DNA of 5,753 nt, taken from IMG/VR virus record IMGVR_UViG_3300009419_002129. One strand, written 5' to 3'. The DNA comes from a virus. Of the stretch, positions 1-5,753 are shown piece after piece. Under the pieces are notes generated by a model, which was not told the origin of the DNA, did no database searches, and saw nothing but the letters and a program-made list of their open reading frames with translations. The stretch's first letter is position 1, and each line of letters begins with the position of its first letter. The position numbers were made by a program, and so were the translations under genes.

Positions 1-123
1 AGCAATTACGCCGAGTTTGCACCACGCTTGGTGTAACGCCATGCAACAAACAGAGCAATAACAACAAGAGCACCACCAAAAATTAATTTGGCATTTGCAG
101 TAACAGAAGTTAAACCTGATGTG
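1..123. repeat. Terminal redundancy, copy 1 (identical to 5631-5753); it marks the window as a circular 5630-bp replicon
   Basis: A base-by-base comparison of 1-123 with 5631-5753 shows 123/123 identity. The repeat boundary falls inside the coat-protein CDS, so it is not an att or LTR-type repeat. Confidence 0.9.
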
Positions 124-266
124 AATGCAGTAACATCAAGATCACCTTCAGCATGTGCAGCAGATGAAAGAACAGCTAAACCAGCAACAGTTGTAGCAAC
201 CCCAAGTTTTGTATAAGCATCATTTACTTTCTGAGCAATTGATGGTTTTTTTTCTTGAATTTCCAT
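6..266 (-). CDS. Major coat protein precursor (pVIII-like)
   Basis: The product is 86 aa. It has a hydrophobic leader ending in AHA followed by EGDLDV (an AXA signal-peptidase site after residue 39). The mature ~47-aa peptide has an acidic N-terminus (EGDLDV), a hydrophobic core (LIFGGALVVIALFVAW) and a basic C-terminus (RYTKRGANSA). A strong SD (AGGAG) lies 8 nt upstream of the ATG. The gene sits before a strong terminator and the pIII-like gene, as in Ff phage. Confidence 0.85.
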   Translation of the reverse strand: MEIQEKKPSIAQKVNDAYTKLGVATTVAGLAVLSSAAHAEGDLDVTAFTSGLTSVTANAKLIFGGALVVIALFVAWRYTKRGANSA

Positions 267-276
267 TGAAATTCTC

Positions 277-471
277 CTAAAGCAATTTAGCGGCTTTGGC
301 TATGACCGCAAAAGAAACGAATACAATCCACAACTTGCCAAATTCTCTGTATATCAATCGGGCTTCTTCACCAGTGATAGCCAAATAATCTGTAAAGTTT
401 GACTGTACGACCCAAGAAGCACACGTTTGAACACCCTCAATTACTTGTAATGTTTCACAGACGTATGCCAT
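277..471 (-). CDS. Small hypothetical protein with a C-terminal hydrophobic segment, in the pVII/pIX position; possibly a minor coat or assembly protein
   Basis: This 64-aa ORF lies between the ssDNA-binding-position gene and the coat gene. It has a C-terminal hydrophobic stretch (LWIVFVSFAVIAKAA). Its TAG stop overlaps the coat gene SD. Its own SD is weak (GGA). I recognise no motif in it. Confidence 0.5.
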   Translation of the reverse strand: MAYVCETLQVIEGVQTCASWVVQSNFTDYLAITGEEARLIYREFGKLWIVFVSFAVIAKAAKLL

Positions 472-483
472 TTTTTAAAATCC

Positions 484-513
484 AAAAAAAACGCTCAGTA
501 AAAATTACTGAGC
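484..513 (-). terminator. Intrinsic terminator or attenuator at the 3' end of the gene-V-position CDS
   Basis: The minus strand reads GCTCAGTA-ATTTT-TACTGAGC (8-bp perfect stem, arms at 493-500 and 506-513) followed by G and T8 (complement of A8 at 484-491). The stem includes the TAA stop codon at 505-507. Confidence 0.7.
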
Positions 514-747
514 ATTAGAAATTTGAGCATTAGCAAAATACAAACGATCACCTTTTAGAATCAGTTGTAAATCGACAAATTCACCACTTTCCGCAAGATC
601 AGCCAACTGACCTTTTTCAGAATTGTTTGTATAAGCAACAAACTTGGTAACAGGCTCAACAACTTCAAAAGTAAAGAGCTGATTACCTTTTTTTGATTCA
701 AATGTATTTAATTTAACGCCTTCAACTAAAACTTTAATTCCGTCCAT
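505..747 (-). CDS. Putative ssDNA-binding protein (gene V-like by size and position)
   Basis: The product is 80 aa starting at MDGIKVLVEG. The SD GAAGGG lies 7-8 nt upstream of the ATG at 745-747. The longer ORF-track start at 822 lies inside the -35 box of the predicted promoter and is therefore rejected. A small protein directly downstream of rep and upstream of the coat genes matches the gene V position. There is no direct motif evidence. Confidence 0.55.
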   Translation of the reverse strand: MDGIKVLVEGVKLNTFESKKGNQLFTFEVVEPVTKFVAYTNNSEKGQLADLAESGEFVDLQLILKGDRLYFANAQISNAQ

Positions 748-793: not shown

Positions 794-822
794 ATTATGT
801 TGTCATGACAACAAGTTGTCAA
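794..822 (-). promoter_or_regulatory. Near-consensus sigma70-type promoter for the ssb-coat structural operon
   Basis: The minus strand reads TTGACA (complement of 817-822), a 17-nt spacer, then CATAAT (complement of 794-799). The -35 box matches consensus 6/6 and the -10 box 5/6. It sits about 45 nt upstream of the ATG at 747. Confidence 0.7.
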
Positions 823-837
823 GACGAAATGACAACA
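798..837. promoter_or_regulatory. Two operator-like inverted repeats built from the half-site TGTTGTCA/TGACAACA
   Basis: O1 is a perfect 16-bp palindrome, TGTTGTCATGACAACA, at 798-813, inside the promoter spacer. O2 is GTTGTCA-N8-TGACAACA at 815-837 and overlaps both -35 boxes. A 14/16 copy lies at 2308-2323. Confidence 0.7.
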
Positions 838-844
838 ATAAATT
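816..844 (+). promoter_or_regulatory. Candidate divergent promoter for the 60-aa regulator gene
   Basis: The plus strand reads TTGTCA (816-821), a 17-nt spacer, then TAAATT (839-844), about 38 nt upstream of the ATG at 882. It is weaker than the opposing promoter, and the two -35 boxes overlap. Confidence 0.45.
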
Positions 845-881: not shown

Positions 882-1064
882 ATGATGGCGTATTTACGAG
901 TAAAGAAGATAGAAGATGAGCTTCTAAAAAAGATAAGTGAAGAACTAAATAGACAACGTTTAGACTTAGGAAAGAACGTCATGAAAGATAGTGAAATCCT
1001 TCACGACGTACTAATAAAAGCTTTAGAAAAATGCAAAGTTGAAGAAGGTGAGTTAATAGTGTGA
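882..1064 (+). CDS. Small putative transcriptional regulator (ribbon-helix-helix-like pattern)
   Basis: This 60-aa ORF is the only plus-strand ORF not buried antisense in a long gene. It is divergent from the structural operon across an operator-rich region. Its pattern fits a beta strand (AYLRVKKI), helix (EDELLKKISEELNRQR), turn and helix (SEILHDVLIKALEK), as in the CopG/Arc-type fold. The SD is weak (AAGAG). A second ATG at 885 is an alternative start. Confidence 0.55.
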   Translation: MMAYLRVKKIEDELLKKISEELNRQRLDLGKNVMKDSEILHDVLIKALEKCKVEEGELIV

Positions 1065-2222
1065 TTCCATAGAAGCAATTTCTCTTTTTGCTAAATCTTC
1101 TATTAATAAATAGGCTTCACTGGTGATTGTGCCGTAGTTCCCTGAACTGTAATCATTCTCCAGTGCAGTTAAATAAGTGTGACGTTTTTGATATTTACAT
1201 AACAATGAAAAAATTAATTGTGGTACTTCTTCTAAAGTAATACCCATATTTTCTGTTTCTTCTGCTAGTTCTTCATCTGTTTTTTCTTCAATTTCTAAAA
1301 GCTTTTTAAGACCACGTGACCAAACCAATTGACGAGCACCTTTAAAAGCAACTCCAAATTCCTGATAGAGCTTTCCATGTTGTTCAGATAATTCATGTTC
1401 AAGCATAGAAGATTGAAGCAGATCGAAAGGAGTTAAACCACCTTCACGACCTTTTTTGATATGGCCTTTTGTTAATTCACTTTCAACACCCCATTTAGAA
1501 ACATATTGTTCAGCATAAGAACCATCACGAATATCTAAACCATGTTGAAGGGATGGAAGGGGAAGATTTGCTTTTTGACAGCAGTTAATCCAGTGTTTAG
1601 AGAGGGATTGTTTTAATTCAAAGAAATTTTCAACAGGCTGACCATTTGTAAAAATCAAAATATGATAATGAGGATGCCAGCCATTTTTACCATGAGTAAC
1701 TTCAAAAGCACGAACTTGATATTCACGACCTAAACAATCATCTAAAAGAAACTTACCTTTCCGATCACCAAAGAAATAGCCTAAGGCTTTTTTTTGTCCT
1801 GCAATAAGAGAACGGAGAGAATGACTAGCAGAATGACTATTTGTAAGAGTTAAAAGAAGAATTCCACCCTGAAAACGATCTTTCCAAGTTTTAACACCCT
1901 GCTTTAATTCTTCACGACGCTTTTCAGTAATTTGTTTAGCACAGACAGGACAAGTCCAAATAGAACCGCATCGTTGAACATTACTCCAGTGAGCTTTGCA
2001 TCTTTCTTCATTGTATTTAACAAAACGACCTTTAGATTTATCAATGCGTCTTTTTAAACAATTAGTGACTCTTTCACGGGGCAAAAGCTTTGCTGATTGA
2101 TCTTGTAATAAAAAATCATGAACCCTCTGAAAGCCTTTATTTTCGGGCGTGGACTGAGATTTCGTAAATATACCAAGGGCGTCGATTTTTGGGGTATTGA
2201 TTTGACTTAAAGAGGAATCCAT
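1053..2222 (-). CDS. Rolling-circle replication initiator, HUH endonuclease (pC194/pUB110 Rep_1-like motifs)
   Basis: The product is 389 aa. Motif 1 is ILLLTLTN (residues 121-128). The HUH motif WHPHYHILIF has the codons CAT CCT CAT TAT CAT, verified at 1662-1676. The candidate catalytic-Tyr motif is EQYVSK (Y240, codon at 1503-1505). An upstream Cys/His cluster reads C75-x2-H-x6-C85-x5-C91-P-V-C94, resembling the CxxxxCPxC element of Rep_1-family proteins as I recall it. Confidence 0.8.
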   Translation of the reverse strand: MDSSLSQINTPKIDALGIFTKSQSTPENKGFQRVHDFLLQDQSAKLLPRERVTNCLKRRIDKSKGRFVKYNEERCKAHWSNVQRCGSIWTCPVCAKQITEKRREELKQGVKTWKDRFQGGILLLTLTNSHSASHSLRSLIAGQKKALGYFFGDRKGKFLLDDCLGREYQVRAFEVTHGKNGWHPHYHILIFTNGQPVENFFELKQSLSKHWINCCQKANLPLPSLQHGLDIRDGSYAEQYVSKWGVESELTKGHIKKGREGGLTPFDLLQSSMLEHELSEQHGKLYQEFGVAFKGARQLVWSRGLKKLLEIEEKTDEELAEETENMGITLEEVPQLIFSLLCKYQKRHTYLTALENDYSSGNYGTITSEAYLLIEDLAKREIASMESHY

Positions 2223-2260
2223 TGTTTAATATATCCAGTGTCGCAAGCACAAATTCACCG

Positions 2261-2291
2261 AAAAAGCCTGAATTGCCGTTCAGGTTTTTTT
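2261..2291. terminator. Bidirectional terminator-like hairpin between the operator copy and the rep start
   Basis: The plus strand reads A5-G-CCTGAA (2267-2272), TTGCCG, TTCAGG (2279-2284), then T7 (2285-2291). The stem is 6 bp. The T-tract has 7 T on the plus strand and 5 T on the minus strand. Confidence 0.5.
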
Positions 2292-2299
2292 CGTCCTTA

Positions 2300-2327
2300 A
2301 AAATGTTTGTTGTCATGTAAACATTTT
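2300..2327. promoter_or_regulatory. Inverted repeat containing a third operator-like copy, upstream of rep
   Basis: AAAATGTTT (2300-2308) and AAACATTTT (2319-2327) form 9-bp perfect arms. Embedded at 2308-2323 is TGTTGTCATGTAAACA, which matches the 16-bp palindrome at 798-813 at 14/16 positions. Confidence 0.55.
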
Positions 2328-2436
2328 GATTAACTATAAAACAAAGCTGTAAAAAAATCTAATAAGAAAGCCAAAAACTAACAGCATAATGAAAAATTTA
2401 AGGCACCATTTAATAAAATCCATATTCCCTCAGTTC

Positions 2437-2491: not shown

Positions 2492-3859
2492 TCAGAGAGA
2501 AGAAGTTTCAGGATCAGATAATTGTTGTTCGGGAGCACTCCGCTCCCTCTGTTGCTGTTGTGATGAAGCAAAATAATTAAACGGACGATAACCATCTAAC
2601 CATCTTTGACAATCAGAAGCAGACACAGAAGGCATATAGTTACCTTGCTGATCTAAAGCCATAAGGCGACCACTGGAGAGCTTTACAACACCTGACATTC
2701 TAGGGAAGTCAGTAGGATTTAATTTTTCAGGTACATATTCAAAATCATAAGGCTTTGAAGGATTATAAACAGCTTGATAAACCTCTCCAGTAGAAGAAAC
2801 AGAAGATTTATTTTTAGAAAGATCATCAAACCATTTAACACATTCAGGCTTTTCGATATTTACTGCTTTTCTACATTCTTGGGAAAGATCACTGGAAGGA
2901 TTATCCATAGGCTTAGAACTAGAAGCCACAGTAGAAACGGTATTAGTATTTGATCCATTAGCTATTTCCTCTGCTTTTTTCTTATCAGATAAACCCCATG
3001 CAAACATAGCACCAGCGACACATAAAAATAAACCTAAAGGAATTAAACCAGCAGGTAAACGCTTTTTGTGGGTATCAATAGTTGTGGATTTATATAATTT
3101 AAAAACTCTAGGTTGTGGTTTAAAACTAAATTTTGATTCACAGTTAAGTTTATTTACTAATGTATTCGGATATTGTCGGCACGATCCAAACTGATAAACC
3201 TTCGGAGTACGTCCATAAGGTCGCGTGATATGCCAATGTACGCCAATCAATTCACGAACAATAGGATGAAGAAAAGAAGGTGATTGAGTAATCAAATAGA
3301 AATCAAAACCACGGTGACGATGAATTGTTAAATCCTGAATCATTCGATCATTGGATTTTTTGTCTGAATAAGGTTCTACGTTCTGAATCTCATCAATAAC
3401 AATAATAGAACCGTCTGGAGCTTCTCGCCAATCATGAATAAGAGCACGAACATTATCAATTTTTAGAGCTTTAATATTTGTGTAAATTGTGCGAACAGGT
3501 TGAAGAAACTCAAATTTTTGTTGTCCTTCACGATCATTAATACGCTCAATAATTTCGTTATAATAAATAGAACGCTGAAAATAAAAATCAGGACGTAAAT
3601 CATCAAATTCTTGATCTAAGAAATCCCAATAATCTTTATCAAAATTTAAAATCTCTGTTTTTAATTCATGACCTGAACCAACTTCATAGGTGTAATAATC
3701 AAAATCATCACGATAGAGATCAAATAAATTTTTATTGTGTTCATGAACAAGTTTATTTTTAGCAAGGTTGATTTTGTTTTTACGTTCAACTTCATCAAGT
3801 TTAGTGACTACAAAAGCGGTTTTACTTGCACCAGGTACGCCAGTAATTAAATGCAACAT
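2492..3859 (-). CDS. Zot/pI-like phage assembly ATPase
   Basis: The product is 455 aa. It has an N-terminal P-loop, GVPGASKT (residues 7-14, nt 3818-3841), a Walker B motif IIVIDE (152-157) and HRHRGFDFYLITQ, as in Zot-family proteins. A single central TM segment, LPAGLIPLGLFLCVAGAMFAWGL (~268-290), is followed by a Ser-rich C-terminal domain. The SD GAGGTG lies 9 nt upstream of the ATG. Confidence 0.85.
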   Translation of the reverse strand: MLHLITGVPGASKTAFVVTKLDEVERKNKINLAKNKLVHEHNKNLFDLYRDDFDYYTYEVGSGHELKTEILNFDKDYWDFLDQEFDDLRPDFYFQRSIYYNEIIERINDREGQQKFEFLQPVRTIYTNIKALKIDNVRALIHDWREAPDGSIIVIDEIQNVEPYSDKKSNDRMIQDLTIHRHRGFDFYLITQSPSFLHPIVRELIGVHWHITRPYGRTPKVYQFGSCRQYPNTLVNKLNCESKFSFKPQPRVFKLYKSTTIDTHKKRLPAGLIPLGLFLCVAGAMFAWGLSDKKKAEEIANGSNTNTVSTVASSSKPMDNPSSDLSQECRKAVNIEKPECVKWFDDLSKNKSSVSSTGEVYQAVYNPSKPYDFEYVPEKLNPTDFPRMSGVVKLSSGRLMALDQQGNYMPSVSASDCQRWLDGYRPFNYFASSQQQQRERSAPEQQLSDPETSSL

Positions 3860-3926: not shown

Positions 3927-4202
3927 TTATTGTTTGCCAAAAAATGTTTTTGTTGATTGTTGGGTGTATCTAGTAAGCATTGCACCCAAGATTAAAGAAA
4001 AGAAAATGTCAAAACCTGAAAGGCCCATTAGTTGAACTAATGTGTTAGGTATCTGGCCTAAAGATGATGTGAAAAGATCAATAGCCTGATTCAAGAAAAC
4101 AAGCATTGCACCACTGGTTAAAAGTGTTAATCCAGCACCTTCAAGAACATTCTTAAGAAAGCCTTTCTGTGTACTTGCTAAGATGGTTGATAAATTACTC
4201 AT
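3927..4202 (-). CDS. pVI/Ace-like small hydrophobic minor coat protein
   Basis: The 91-aa product has two to three hydrophobic segments (GAGLTLLTSGAMLVFL; GFDIFFSLILGAML). It lies between the pIII-like and pI-like genes, as in Ff and CTXphi. Its start overlaps the pIII-like stop (ATGAGTAA), which suggests translational coupling. Confidence 0.65.
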   Translation of the reverse strand: MSNLSTILASTQKGFLKNVLEGAGLTLLTSGAMLVFLNQAIDLFTSSLGQIPNTLVQLMGLSGFDIFFSLILGAMLTRYTQQSTKTFFGKQ

Positions 4203-5523
4203 TGACTTTCACCCCTCCAAGAATAAGAGCAGCTATAAAAGCACCGAGGGAAATAAGGATAGGTCTAACCCAATCAGAAAGAATCGAGCAGAAACCATCA
4301 AAAGAAAATTCAATTTTGAAAGGCTGACCGTAGAAATCAGAATCAATAAATACAACTGGAGCAGGACAACCAGAAGCTAAATTAATATCAACAGATTCAG
4401 CTTCTAAATCTAATTGTTCAACATCTACTTCTGTATCTTCTGAATCTTTTTCTTTTGTTGCCCATTCTTTAGCAGCAGTCCAAGCTTCTGAGATAGATAA
4501 AGCCCATTCTTCGGCTTTTGATTTTCCTGTTTCCCACCAATTTGTAAGAGTTTGAGGAAAAGAGATAACAACTTGAGCAGCTTCACAAACTAAAGGTGCC
4601 CAACCACAAAAAACAGGAAATTCTAAAGATAAATCCATTGCTTCGGGATTTTGAGTATTAGGCTTTGATTGTCCTTGAGCTTCATTGGCTTTTTCAGCAG
4701 CAGCTTCATCAGCAGGTTTTGTTTGAGCAGATGCTTCTAATTGTTGAGCAATAGGACGAGCTTTGGCATCGTCTTTTTCAGCTTCTGCAACAATGTCAGC
4801 AGCAGCAGCAGTTGTTGCAGCTTGAGCGTTTGTATCGCCTGATTCAGCATTTGAAATAACTTTTTGAGCTACAACTTCAAGAGGTAAAGTTTTTTGTTCT
4901 TCTTCAGGTTCAGCATTAGGATCATAATTAGGATTAGCAACACTTAAAGGATTAGCTTCATAGTTGCGATTAGGATAGCCAGGATAAGTGAGAACGGCTG
5001 TACATTTAATACGAACACCAGGTGTTTTAACTGATGAAGCAGTGGGACAAGAATAAGATTGAATAGTCCAACCTGCCATGTTTGTATTTAAAATTTTTCG
5101 AACAACTGAATCAAGAGATTCACAAGTACCACCATTCCAAGTCCAACAAACTGGGGAATCAGGAGGAACCTTTGTAGGGTCTTGTGGTTTTGTATAAACA
5201 ATCTGATTGTTTGCAGGATCAAGAACCCAATCTACAGAACCTAATAATTGTTCAACAGCTACAGACAAGGCATAACCAGCAGCACCACGAGCAAGAACTT
5301 TGGCAACACCACTTGCAGGAGGAGTAATTTTTGCAGTGCCTTTTTTTATATAATCGACACCATCAATAACAACTTTTTTTGTACCTTCATAAACAGTAGA
5401 AGCACCTTGAGCGACACCACCACCCAAAGTCCAACCGCCAACATTGGCAGCATAAATATTTGTACTAATCAAATTAAAACAAAGGACAAAAATCAGAGCT
5501 ATAAAGCTTTTATTATTAGCCAT
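4195..5523 (-). CDS. pIII-like adsorption/minor coat protein
   Basis: The product is 442 aa counted from MANNKSF, with the SD GGTGG 5 nt upstream of the ATG at 5521-5523. The signal peptide ends at IYA followed by A. The mature protein has eight Cys in four plausible pairs, followed by an Ala/Glu/Gln-rich low-complexity linker. The C-terminus, CPAPVVF...GQPFKIEFSFDGFC plus the TM anchor ILISLGAFIAALILGG, resembles the M13 g3p C-domain (CRPFVF..GKPYEFSIDC plus anchor) as I recall it. Confidence 0.8.
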   Translation of the reverse strand: MANNKSFIALIFVLCFNLISTNIYAANVGGWTLGGGVAQGASTVYEGTKKVVIDGVDYIKKGTAKITPPASGVAKVLARGAAGYALSVAVEQLLGSVDWVLDPANNQIVYTKPQDPTKVPPDSPVCWTWNGGTCESLDSVVRKILNTNMAGWTIQSYSCPTASSVKTPGVRIKCTAVLTYPGYPNRNYEANPLSVANPNYDPNAEPEEEQKTLPLEVVAQKVISNAESGDTNAQAATTAAAADIVAEAEKDDAKARPIAQQLEASAQTKPADEAAAEKANEAQGQSKPNTQNPEAMDLSLEFPVFCGWAPLVCEAAQVVISFPQTLTNWWETGKSKAEEWALSISEAWTAAKEWATKEKDSEDTEVDVEQLDLEAESVDINLASGCPAPVVFIDSDFYGQPFKIEFSFDGFCSILSDWVRPILISLGAFIAALILGGVKVNE

Positions 5524-5593: not shown

Positions 5594-5620
5594 AAAAGAA
5601 GAAAGCCCCATTTCTGGGGC
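5594..5620 (-). terminator. Strong intrinsic terminator after the major coat gene
   Basis: The minus strand reads GCCCCA-GAAA-TGGGGC (arms at 5605-5610 and 5615-5620) followed by TTTCTTCTTTT (complement of 5594-5604). It lies 15 nt downstream of the coat TAA stop at 5636-5638. This matches the placement of the post-gene-VIII terminator in Ff phage. Confidence 0.8.
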
Positions 5621-5630
5621 GTTTCAAAAC

Positions 5631-5753
5631 AGCAATTACGCCGAGTTTGCACCACGCTTGGTGTAACGCCATGCAACAAACAGAGCAATAACAACAAGAG
5701 CACCACCAAAAATTAATTTGGCATTTGCAGTAACAGAAGTTAAACCTGATGTG
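5631..5753. repeat. Terminal redundancy, copy 2, containing a duplicate of the 3' end of the coat CDS (5636-5753, minus strand)
   Basis: This segment is identical to 1-123. It is not an independent gene. Confidence 0.9.

Follow-up and report, generated by a model that had tools for sequence, protein, structure and literature searches.

A conserved array of 8-bp units in an inovirus operon promoter and a divergent gene for a 60-residue putative repressor

Gene order and promoters of the genome

The window, that is, the whole stretch of 5,753 nucleotides that was analysed (IMG/VR record IMGVR_UViG_3300009419_002129), ends in an exact 123-nt terminal repeat. Since bases 1-123 recur at 5631-5753, the window represents a circular genome, a complete inovirus genome of 5,630 nt whose assembly ran past its own start. 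The hallmarks of the Inoviridae were all found: a Zot/pI ATPase, a Coat B protein, a DUF2523 pVI-like protein, a rolling-circle Rep and one main coding strand (Table 1). All sizeable ORFs lie on the minus strand, with the exception of a 60-residue frame, hereafter ORF60. The nearest deposited genome, that of Dulem virus 65, aligns in the Zot gene alone (69.5% identity), and a search of Rfam found no family. The genome lacks an integrase and is that of a small non-integrating, probably episomal inovirus; the host is probably a member of the Moraxellaceae (Acinetobacter-like).

Assemblies of various unrelated organisms also contained close relatives of Rep (54-75% identity; L022-L027), on short contigs (0.7-3 kb). 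The organisms are Acinetobacter lwoffii, an Acinetobacter sp. (with a coverage of 1249 in the contig name), Ancylomarina, Agromyces and a Pseudobdellovibrionaceae MAG. These contigs look like carry-over of, or contamination by, an Acinetobacter-associated inovirus rather than a record of true hosts. No ORF60 homologue was found on them or at the distant Rep loci L003-L007.

Table 1 Features of the inovirus genome, in order of position in the window
Feature	Position	Strand	Remarks
Coat B protein	6-266	-	
64-aa ORF	277-471	-	
Terminator-like hairpin	490-516	-	directly after the gene-V-position ORF
80-aa ORF, gene-V position	505-747	-	first gene after P_struct; role deduced from location alone
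P_struct -10 hexamer CATAAT	794-799	-	11/12 match; ATTATG invariant in 7 relatives
Unit 1, TGTTGTCA	798-805	+	forward; in the P_struct spacer, overlaps the -10
Unit 2, TGACAACA	806-813	-	reverse; units 1+2 form the 16-bp palindrome
Unit 3, AGTTGTCA	814-821	+	forward, 1 mismatch; covers both -35 boxes
Candidate ORF60 promoter, TTGTCA (816-821)-17-TAAATT (839-844)	816-844	+	9/12 match
P_struct -35 hexamer TTGACA	817-822	-	TGTCAA invariant in all relatives
Unit 5, TGACAACA	830-837	-	reverse; in the ORF60 promoter spacer
ORF60, 60 residues, putative repressor, phrog_5642	882-1064	+	only plus-strand gene
rep (Rep_1 family)	1053-2222	-	PF01446, E = 1.1e-11 (Pfam)
Hairpin between putative operator copy and rep start	2267-2284	both	terminator-like on both strands
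Putative operator copy, TGTTGTCATGTAAACAT	2308-2324	+	17-mer invariant in 8 relatives; flanks vary
Candidate rep promoter, TAGATT (2361-2356)-17-TATAGT (2338-2333)	2333-2361	-	8/12 match; found by eye, below scan threshold
Zot/pI ATPase	2492-3859	-	
DUF2523/pVI-like protein	3927-4202	-	
442-aa pIII-like protein	4195-5523	-	
Terminator-like hairpin	5605-5620	-	directly after the major coat gene

The two terminator-like hairpins that follow the gene-V-position ORF and the major coat gene suggest nested or graded transcripts of falling abundance, as in Ff phages. Two GC-rich hairpins of another kind lie on the viral strand at 2436-2484 (GCGTCCC-GCAT-GGGCGC and CTCCCGT...ACGGGAG) and are kept with compensatory changes in L010 (~1960-2060); they are candidates for a packaging signal or a complementary-strand origin. 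The Rep of L001 is 99% identical to that of the window, yet the two genomes diverge completely on one side of the first of these hairpins (L001 ~120-150), which suggests a recombination junction.

Leftward transcription of the operon is assigned to a predicted promoter, P_struct, TTGACA (822-817)-17-CATAAT (799-794), the sole 11/12 sigma-70 match that a promoter scan returned in the window and one that is conserved in relatives, its frame recurring in lineages at 48-54% protein identity. A perfect 16-bp palindrome, TGTTGTCATGACAACA (798-813), lies between its -35 and -10 hexamers, and a second inverted repeat, composed of GTTGTCA (815-821) and TGACAAC (830-836) with an 8-nt gap, covers two overlapping, opposed -35 boxes. 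An earlier reading of this DNA from its letters alone (the sequence-only reading) had described both elements, and their coordinates proved exact. The palindrome alone is unremarkable, because 158 of 1000 dinucleotide-shuffled genomes contained a perfect 16-bp palindrome. The recurrence of the 16-mer and of its half-site within the genome is significant: the 16-mer occurs twice at up to 3 mismatches (0.08 expected) and the half-site 15 times at up to 1 mismatch (7.5 +/- 2.7 expected; 0/200 shuffles reached 15). Four of the five exact half-site copies fall within 40 bp, at spacings that are multiples of 8.

The opposed rightward promoter, proposed earlier to drive ORF60, has exactly the sequence that had been given for it, but its match to the consensus is weak. 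Twelve sigma-70 sites of at least 9/12 were found in the window against 17.6 expected by chance, and the 9/12 ORF60 promoter is therefore not above chance by itself. The position of TTGTCA-17-TAA(A/T)TT is kept in five of the seven close relatives; in L008 and L013 the promoter is unrecognisable.

ORF60 has 37 homologues at 77-100% identity, and the homologue contigs that were fetched are inoviruses of about 5.6-6.3 kb with the gene order of the window. Pairwise dN/dS values of 0.03-0.19, with dS above 1 or saturated, indicate that ORF60 is a real gene under strong purifying selection. Over residues 1-59 it matches phrog_5642 (E = 1.7e-15), a PHROGs family without an annotated function that four of its distant homologues match as well. 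A profile search returned further distant homologues at 30-55% identity, including proteins of Acinetobacter baumannii, A. guillouiae and Neisseria perflava. In a tblastn search against deposited phages ORF60 gave no match, and a distant family member matched only 'hypothetical protein' genes, which is how the deposited copies are annotated.

In the window ORF60 lies between rep and the gene-V position, diverging from the gene-V-position ORF (for which no Pfam match was found), and rep converges on it with a 12-nt overlap. The sequence-only reading had set this position of the repressor gene apart from that in CTXphi, and the gene order confirms it. Distant homologues do sit divergently upstream of rep, as in L029, L030, L031, L032, L035, L036 and Dulem virus 65 (L028), and in these loci rep mostly encodes a Phage_CRI protein, unrelated to the Rep_1 protein of the window. 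At the end of the A. baumannii contig RFCN01000013.1 (L031, 4071-8201), rep, ORF66 and a 100-aa ORF are tandemly duplicated, with 95% identity between the two ORF66 copies, as expected for tandem filamentous prophages.

Conservation of the repeat units and co-variation with the ORF60 family

For the comparison of intergenic regions, seven distinct relatives were anchored on the -35 box. The block 795-824 (ATTATG...TTGTCAAGA) was nearly invariant among them, and its flanks varied. As synonymous sites are saturated between these genomes, the conserved non-coding blocks 795-824 and 2308-2324 are under selection.

Within the first block the palindrome resolves into 8-bp units. Units 1-5 read TGTTGTCA, TGACAACA, AGTTGTCA, AGACGAAA and TGACAACA in the window; TGTTGTCA, TGACAACA, TGTTGTCA, AGACTAAT and TGACAACA in L008; TGTTGTCA, TGTTTTCA, TGTTGTCA, AGACGAAA and TGACAACA in L016; and TGTTTATA, TGTTGTCA, TGTTGTCA, AGACTACA and AGCAAACA in L010. 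Unit 2 is forward-oriented in the latter two (TGTTTTCA and TGTTGTCA, respectively), which is an orientation flip and not drift. Unit 5 (830-837) is kept in four of the seven close relatives and is lacking in, for example, L012 and L013. The promoter frame A(T/G)TATG-N17-TGTCAA recurs in lineages at 45-55% protein identity, where it holds three direct copies of the unit (L040), four direct copies (L043), two direct copies and one near-copy (L042), or the pattern →←→ (L046). L034 has TGACAACA, TGTTGTCT and TGTTGTCA in succession, then ATACA, then TGACAACA. Arrangements across the relatives thus include →←→·←, →→→·← and →→→→.

On this comparison, what is conserved is not a palindrome but a run of contiguous 8-bp TGTTGTCA units in a fixed promoter register, given that unit 2 flips in L016 and L010 and that other lineages carry three to four direct repeats. 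Sigma-70 places no constraint on the bases of the spacer; that units 1 and 2 are nevertheless conserved is counted in favour of units recognised by a protein. The behaviour of the array fits a protein that reads individual units, and not a hairpin or cruciform. With regard to the palindromic operator proposed earlier, the repeat-filled promoter is indeed conserved, but the functional unit appears to be the 8-bp array, and the distal arm of the second repeat (830-837) is kept in four of seven relatives only.

A second site, upstream of rep, had also been pointed out in the sequence-only reading: TGTTGTCATGTAAACA at 2308-2323 is a 14/16 copy of TGTTGTCATGACAACA, and the motif is invariant in the relatives. 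On the coding (minus) strand the 17-mer lies 9 nt downstream of a -10-like TATAGT, and a TATAGT-like -10 before rep is kept in all relatives. If TAGATT-17-TATAGT is the rep promoter, an assignment that we make with low confidence, the putative operator copy would span about +3 to +18. Between the hairpin at 2267-2284 and the rep start codon no acceptable -35/-10 pair was found. Two other candidates in this region were discarded: TTTACA-17-AAGGAC, which overlaps the putative operator copy, has a -10 that is poor and not conserved, and a larger palindrome around 2308-2323 (AAAATGTTT...AAACATTTT) is not conserved in L013.

The hairpin at 2267-2284 is followed by a run of 7 T on the plus strand (8-9 in relatives) and by CTTTTT on the minus strand, and it shows compensatory substitutions in L010, L013, L016 and L019. 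Between the ORF60 stop (1064) and 2267-2291 the plus strand contains no terminator-like site, and the ORF60 transcript could therefore extend across all of rep in antisense. Directly ahead of the rep start codon lie 45 nt (2222-2266, minus strand; GGTGAATTTGTGCTTGCGACACTGGATATATTAAACAATG) that are almost invariant in all relatives; this leader lacks a Shine-Dalgarno sequence, a feature that is clear in the remaining genes. Two copies of the pC194-type nick motif CTTGATA are present, both inside genes and none intergenic, and the motif is not commoner than chance.

Beyond the close relatives, the repeat motif was compared with the N-terminus of the adjacent ORF60-family protein. Homologues with the N-terminal pattern YLRI(K/N) or Y-x-R-x-(K/N) keep TGTTGTCA/TGACAACA sites down to about 31% identity. 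These sites are found with L033/L034 (41% identity), as well as with the A. baumannii prophage L031 and L048-L052, which have a YxRIK N-terminus at 31-39% identity and a Phage_CRI Rep. Other N-termini go with other repeats: QNLRLNK with ACATGTATACA-type repeats (L032), KSLRIKE with ATGCA-type repeats (L035), QNLRLTK with TAAACAAATAA (L036), TNIRLTQ with GCACACA (L037 / Pseudomonas phage NEU2023), and SIALNEW with about 8 copies of CTATAGAAAT upstream (Dulem virus 65). In the last case (L028 2278-2403) the copies, (C)TATAGAA(A/T), occur in both orientations between the ORF60 homologue and rep. In terms of the proposed function, the Dulem virus 65 repeats are a different putative operator vocabulary used with the same protein family. 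Across these loci the repeat motif follows the ORF60-family protein and not Rep. The motif is found with two unrelated Rep families and changes with the N-terminus of the protein; this co-variation of subfamily and motif is the best computational support available for a protein of this family reading the repeats.

Fold prediction, proposed mechanism and alternatives

Pfam scans of ORF60 and 25 family members identified no DNA-binding family and no helix-turn-helix (HTH) family, and searches of PDB sequences with two profiles gave nothing below E = 0.3. An AlphaFold monomer built on 25 close homologues consists of helix 2-28, helix 36-50 and a C-terminal hairpin (pLDDT 94.5). With 51 more diverse sequences, residues 1-8 became non-helical and extended, followed by helix 9-28, helix 36-50 and the hairpin (pLDDT 93.1). 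That residues 2-8 are helical or extended depending on alignment depth, with high AlphaFold confidence both times, calls for caution with small obligate oligomers. Foldseek searches of both models against the PDB, and of the second also against BFVD, returned no match with E < 0.01.

In the family alignment residues 4-8 are strand-like, hydrophobic at positions 5 and 7 and polar at 4, 6 and 8, and two members have a proline at position 9; the alignment thereby favours a strand at residues 4-8. R6, E11, N23, S37 and H41 are invariant, S37 being at the start of the second helix. When compared by hhalign with a hand-entered alignment of Arc, Mnt, CopG and MetJ, the N-terminus of ORF60 falls in the ribbon-helix-helix (RHH) register of Arc, at a probability of 1%, which is not significant. 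The RHH fold suggested by the sequence-only reading accordingly found no match in Pfam, PDB or Foldseek searches, and the predicted order of elements is compatible with it only with the deeper alignment; an RHH assignment is a reasonable hypothesis for ORF60, not a result.

Considering the observed layout, the coding selection on ORF60, the conserved register of array and promoter, and the co-variation of subfamily and motif, we think it probable that an oligomer of ORF60 occludes the operon promoter, its own promoter and the site before rep; that the protein binds, in which sense it regulates, where transcription starts, how ORF60 oligomerises and how it folds are inferred. ORF60 would be a DNA-binding protein that recognises 8-bp TGTTGTCA-type units, with copies binding next to one another, each on a unit or a unit junction, irrespective of how the units are oriented. 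Occupation of units 1-3 in the spacer and -35 of P_struct would exclude RNA polymerase. P_struct is taken to drive the gene-V-position ORF, the coat genes and the Zot/assembly genes, and its occupancy would throttle the production of ssDNA and virions. Units 3 and 5, located in the -35 and spacer of the weak ORF60 promoter, would bring about negative autoregulation at higher occupancy where unit 5 exists; autoregulation may not be general, as this distal unit is absent in three of the seven close relatives. With the -35 boxes overlapping, shutting the strong promoter first may free the weak one, comparable to Mnt at P22 Pant/Pmnt. Finally, the two-unit site at 2308-2323, just downstream of the -10-like element, would form a roadblock to rep transcription. 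Of the repressor switch outlined earlier, a conserved divergent small gene beside a repeat-filled promoter and an invariant motif before rep were retained, whereas the definition of the operator had to be revised.

The units might instead be recognised by a transcription factor of the host, such as an Acinetobacter regulator, with ORF60 having another role. The motif does occur in unrelated inoviruses with apparent Acinetobacter-type hosts (A. baumannii for L031; Rep relatives in A. lwoffii contigs), ORF60 has no recognised DNA-binding domain, and host and protein lineage may co-vary, the TGTTGTCA lineages perhaps all being Acinetobacter-like. We nevertheless consider a host factor unlikely: in every locus examined the motif directly precedes a gene of the ORF60 family, a different N-terminal segment in the encoded protein goes with a different motif, and a contiguous unit array by a small divergent gene is the usual sign of an element-encoded regulator.

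It is likewise improbable that ORF60 binds the array but acts as a Cro-like protein, an activator or an omega/ParG-like organiser of the RF, with promoter occlusion as a side effect. In the case of the RHH protein omega, contiguous arrays of mixed orientation function as centromeres as well (PMC9499535), and a genome that lacks an integrase and is probably episomal would suit such a role. Against this, the genome encodes no ParA-type partner, the array is locked in register with the -35/-10 of a near-consensus promoter in all lineages, and a location within the spacer is one suited to repression.

We see still less room for palindromes that act as DNA structure and regard this as highly improbable. 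Candidates for such a role would be an ssDNA promoter, an origin of replication, a site bound by Rep, or a hairpin or cruciform formed in the ssDNA or the RF. The predicted fold of the viral strand between 785 and 850 (-9.8 kcal/mol) is better than that of shuffled sequences (z = -2.95), and one of the copies is located near rep in the large intergenic region, but L016, L010, L040 and L043 have direct instead of inverted repeats and still keep the units and their register. The motif moreover accompanies two Rep families that are unrelated, the larger palindrome (around 2308-2323) lacks conservation in L013, and an intergenic pC194-type nick motif is missing. A chance occurrence of palindrome and promoter-like hexamers in AT-rich DNA, to which the 16% of shuffles with a perfect 16-bp palindrome and the non-significance of 9/12 promoter matches might point, is effectively refuted already by the conservation data, in view of the recurrence statistics of 16-mer and half-site, the near-invariance across genomes with saturated synonymous divergence, and the same architecture recurring independently in lineages at 35-55% protein identity.

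Promoter occlusion by ORF60 can be extended to a more speculative joint reading, which we put forward as a tentative possibility. The phrog_5642 proteins might be immunity repressors of filamentous phages, of minimal size (~60 residues) and of a class overlooked so far, which would read 8-bp units singly, whatever the orientation or copy number of the units. Specificity would reside in a few residues of the N-terminal strand (Y4, R6 and K/N8 for TGTTGTCA) and give rise to heteroimmune types, and in the window the module would have moved from a rep-proximal to a gene-V-proximal position. Its transcript may run antisense through rep to the hairpin and T-run at 2267-2291, adding replication control by convergent transcription or antisense RNA.

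Comparison with known systems

Filamentous phages that persist without killing their host need to throttle their own production. To our knowledge, only a few repressors of filamentous-phage production have been studied, RstR, Pf4r and FpsR, all of the HTH type. The operators of P22, a phage with very small repressors, are single sites of 21 bp or 17 bp, and Mnt acts on Pmnt in that the shutting of Pant frees this weaker promoter. The account of the P22 immI region in PMC2724298 describes the small repressors Arc and Mnt, with an operator in or over the core of a strong promoter and two opposed, overlapping promoters. The locus described here resembles immI in having a very small putative repressor, a putative operator overlapping a strong promoter, and one short region that would serve two opposed promoters. 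It differs in that ORF60 has no detectable sequence or fold match to Arc/Mnt and is one protein, not two, and in that the sites form an array of 8-bp units of variable orientation in an ssDNA filamentous phage.

RstR of CTXphi is an HTH protein of approximately 110 residues. In the part of PMC4762005 that deals with CTXphi, rstR is transcribed divergently from rstA across ig-2, which holds three RstR sites, and is autoregulated. As with RstR, an inovirus gene is transcribed against the phage operon here, with several putative sites in a compact intergenic region, and the distant ORF60 homologues occupy exactly the rstR position, divergent upstream of rep. ORF60 itself, at 60 residues, has no HTH match and is modelled as two long helices and a hairpin, unlike RstR. 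The gene in the window also faces the gene-V-position ORF instead of diverging from rep, and rep has a separate site.

Pf4r of Pf4 and FpsR of SW1 are described as phage-encoded repressors that govern both superinfection and the production of filamentous phage (PMC8402870, PMC4762005). According to the description of SW1 in PMC4762005, FpsR is an HTH Cro/cI-like protein, the regulatory region is long, at 621 bp, and FpsR leaves its own promoter unbound. Both Pf4r and FpsR are HTH, cI-like proteins, which distinguishes them from ORF60. The only study that we found on filamentous phages of Acinetobacter notes a replicative/regulatory module and characterises no repressor (PMC11209303).

With respect to the form of the sites, there are parallels in two RHH proteins. 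The omega protein (ParB of pSM19035) acts both in repression and at the centromere; its sites are contiguous 7-bp heptads, of which mixed orientations are functional (PMC9499535). The arrangements →←→, →→→ and →→→→ observed here are reminiscent of the omega heptads, binding by ORF60 being a prediction; the units are of 8 bp rather than 7 bp, no sequence similarity to omega was detected, and a ParA partner is lacking. The metboxes of Escherichia coli MetJ share the 8-bp repeat period, and the profile comparison with MetJ was not significant. Each metbox is a palindrome in its own right, and MetJ depends on a co-repressor. The predicted first helix of ORF60 and the loop that follows it are long, as in MetJ, a resemblance that we treat as a lead only.

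Taken together, the locus most likely represents a known kind of switch, in which the new aspects are the uncharacterised protein family and its position in the genome. The analysis provides a testable operator-repressor assignment for a PHROG family without an assigned function, phrog_5642, which is present in many uncultivated inoviruses and in A. baumannii and A. guillouiae prophages with TGTTGTCA-type units. The natural variation in number and orientation of the units offers ready-made material for asking how so small a protein reads sites in tandem. If the assignment is true, the units would be markers of superinfection immunity types in Acinetobacter filamentous phages, and ORF60 with its 8-bp units would constitute a compact orthogonal repressor-operator pair.
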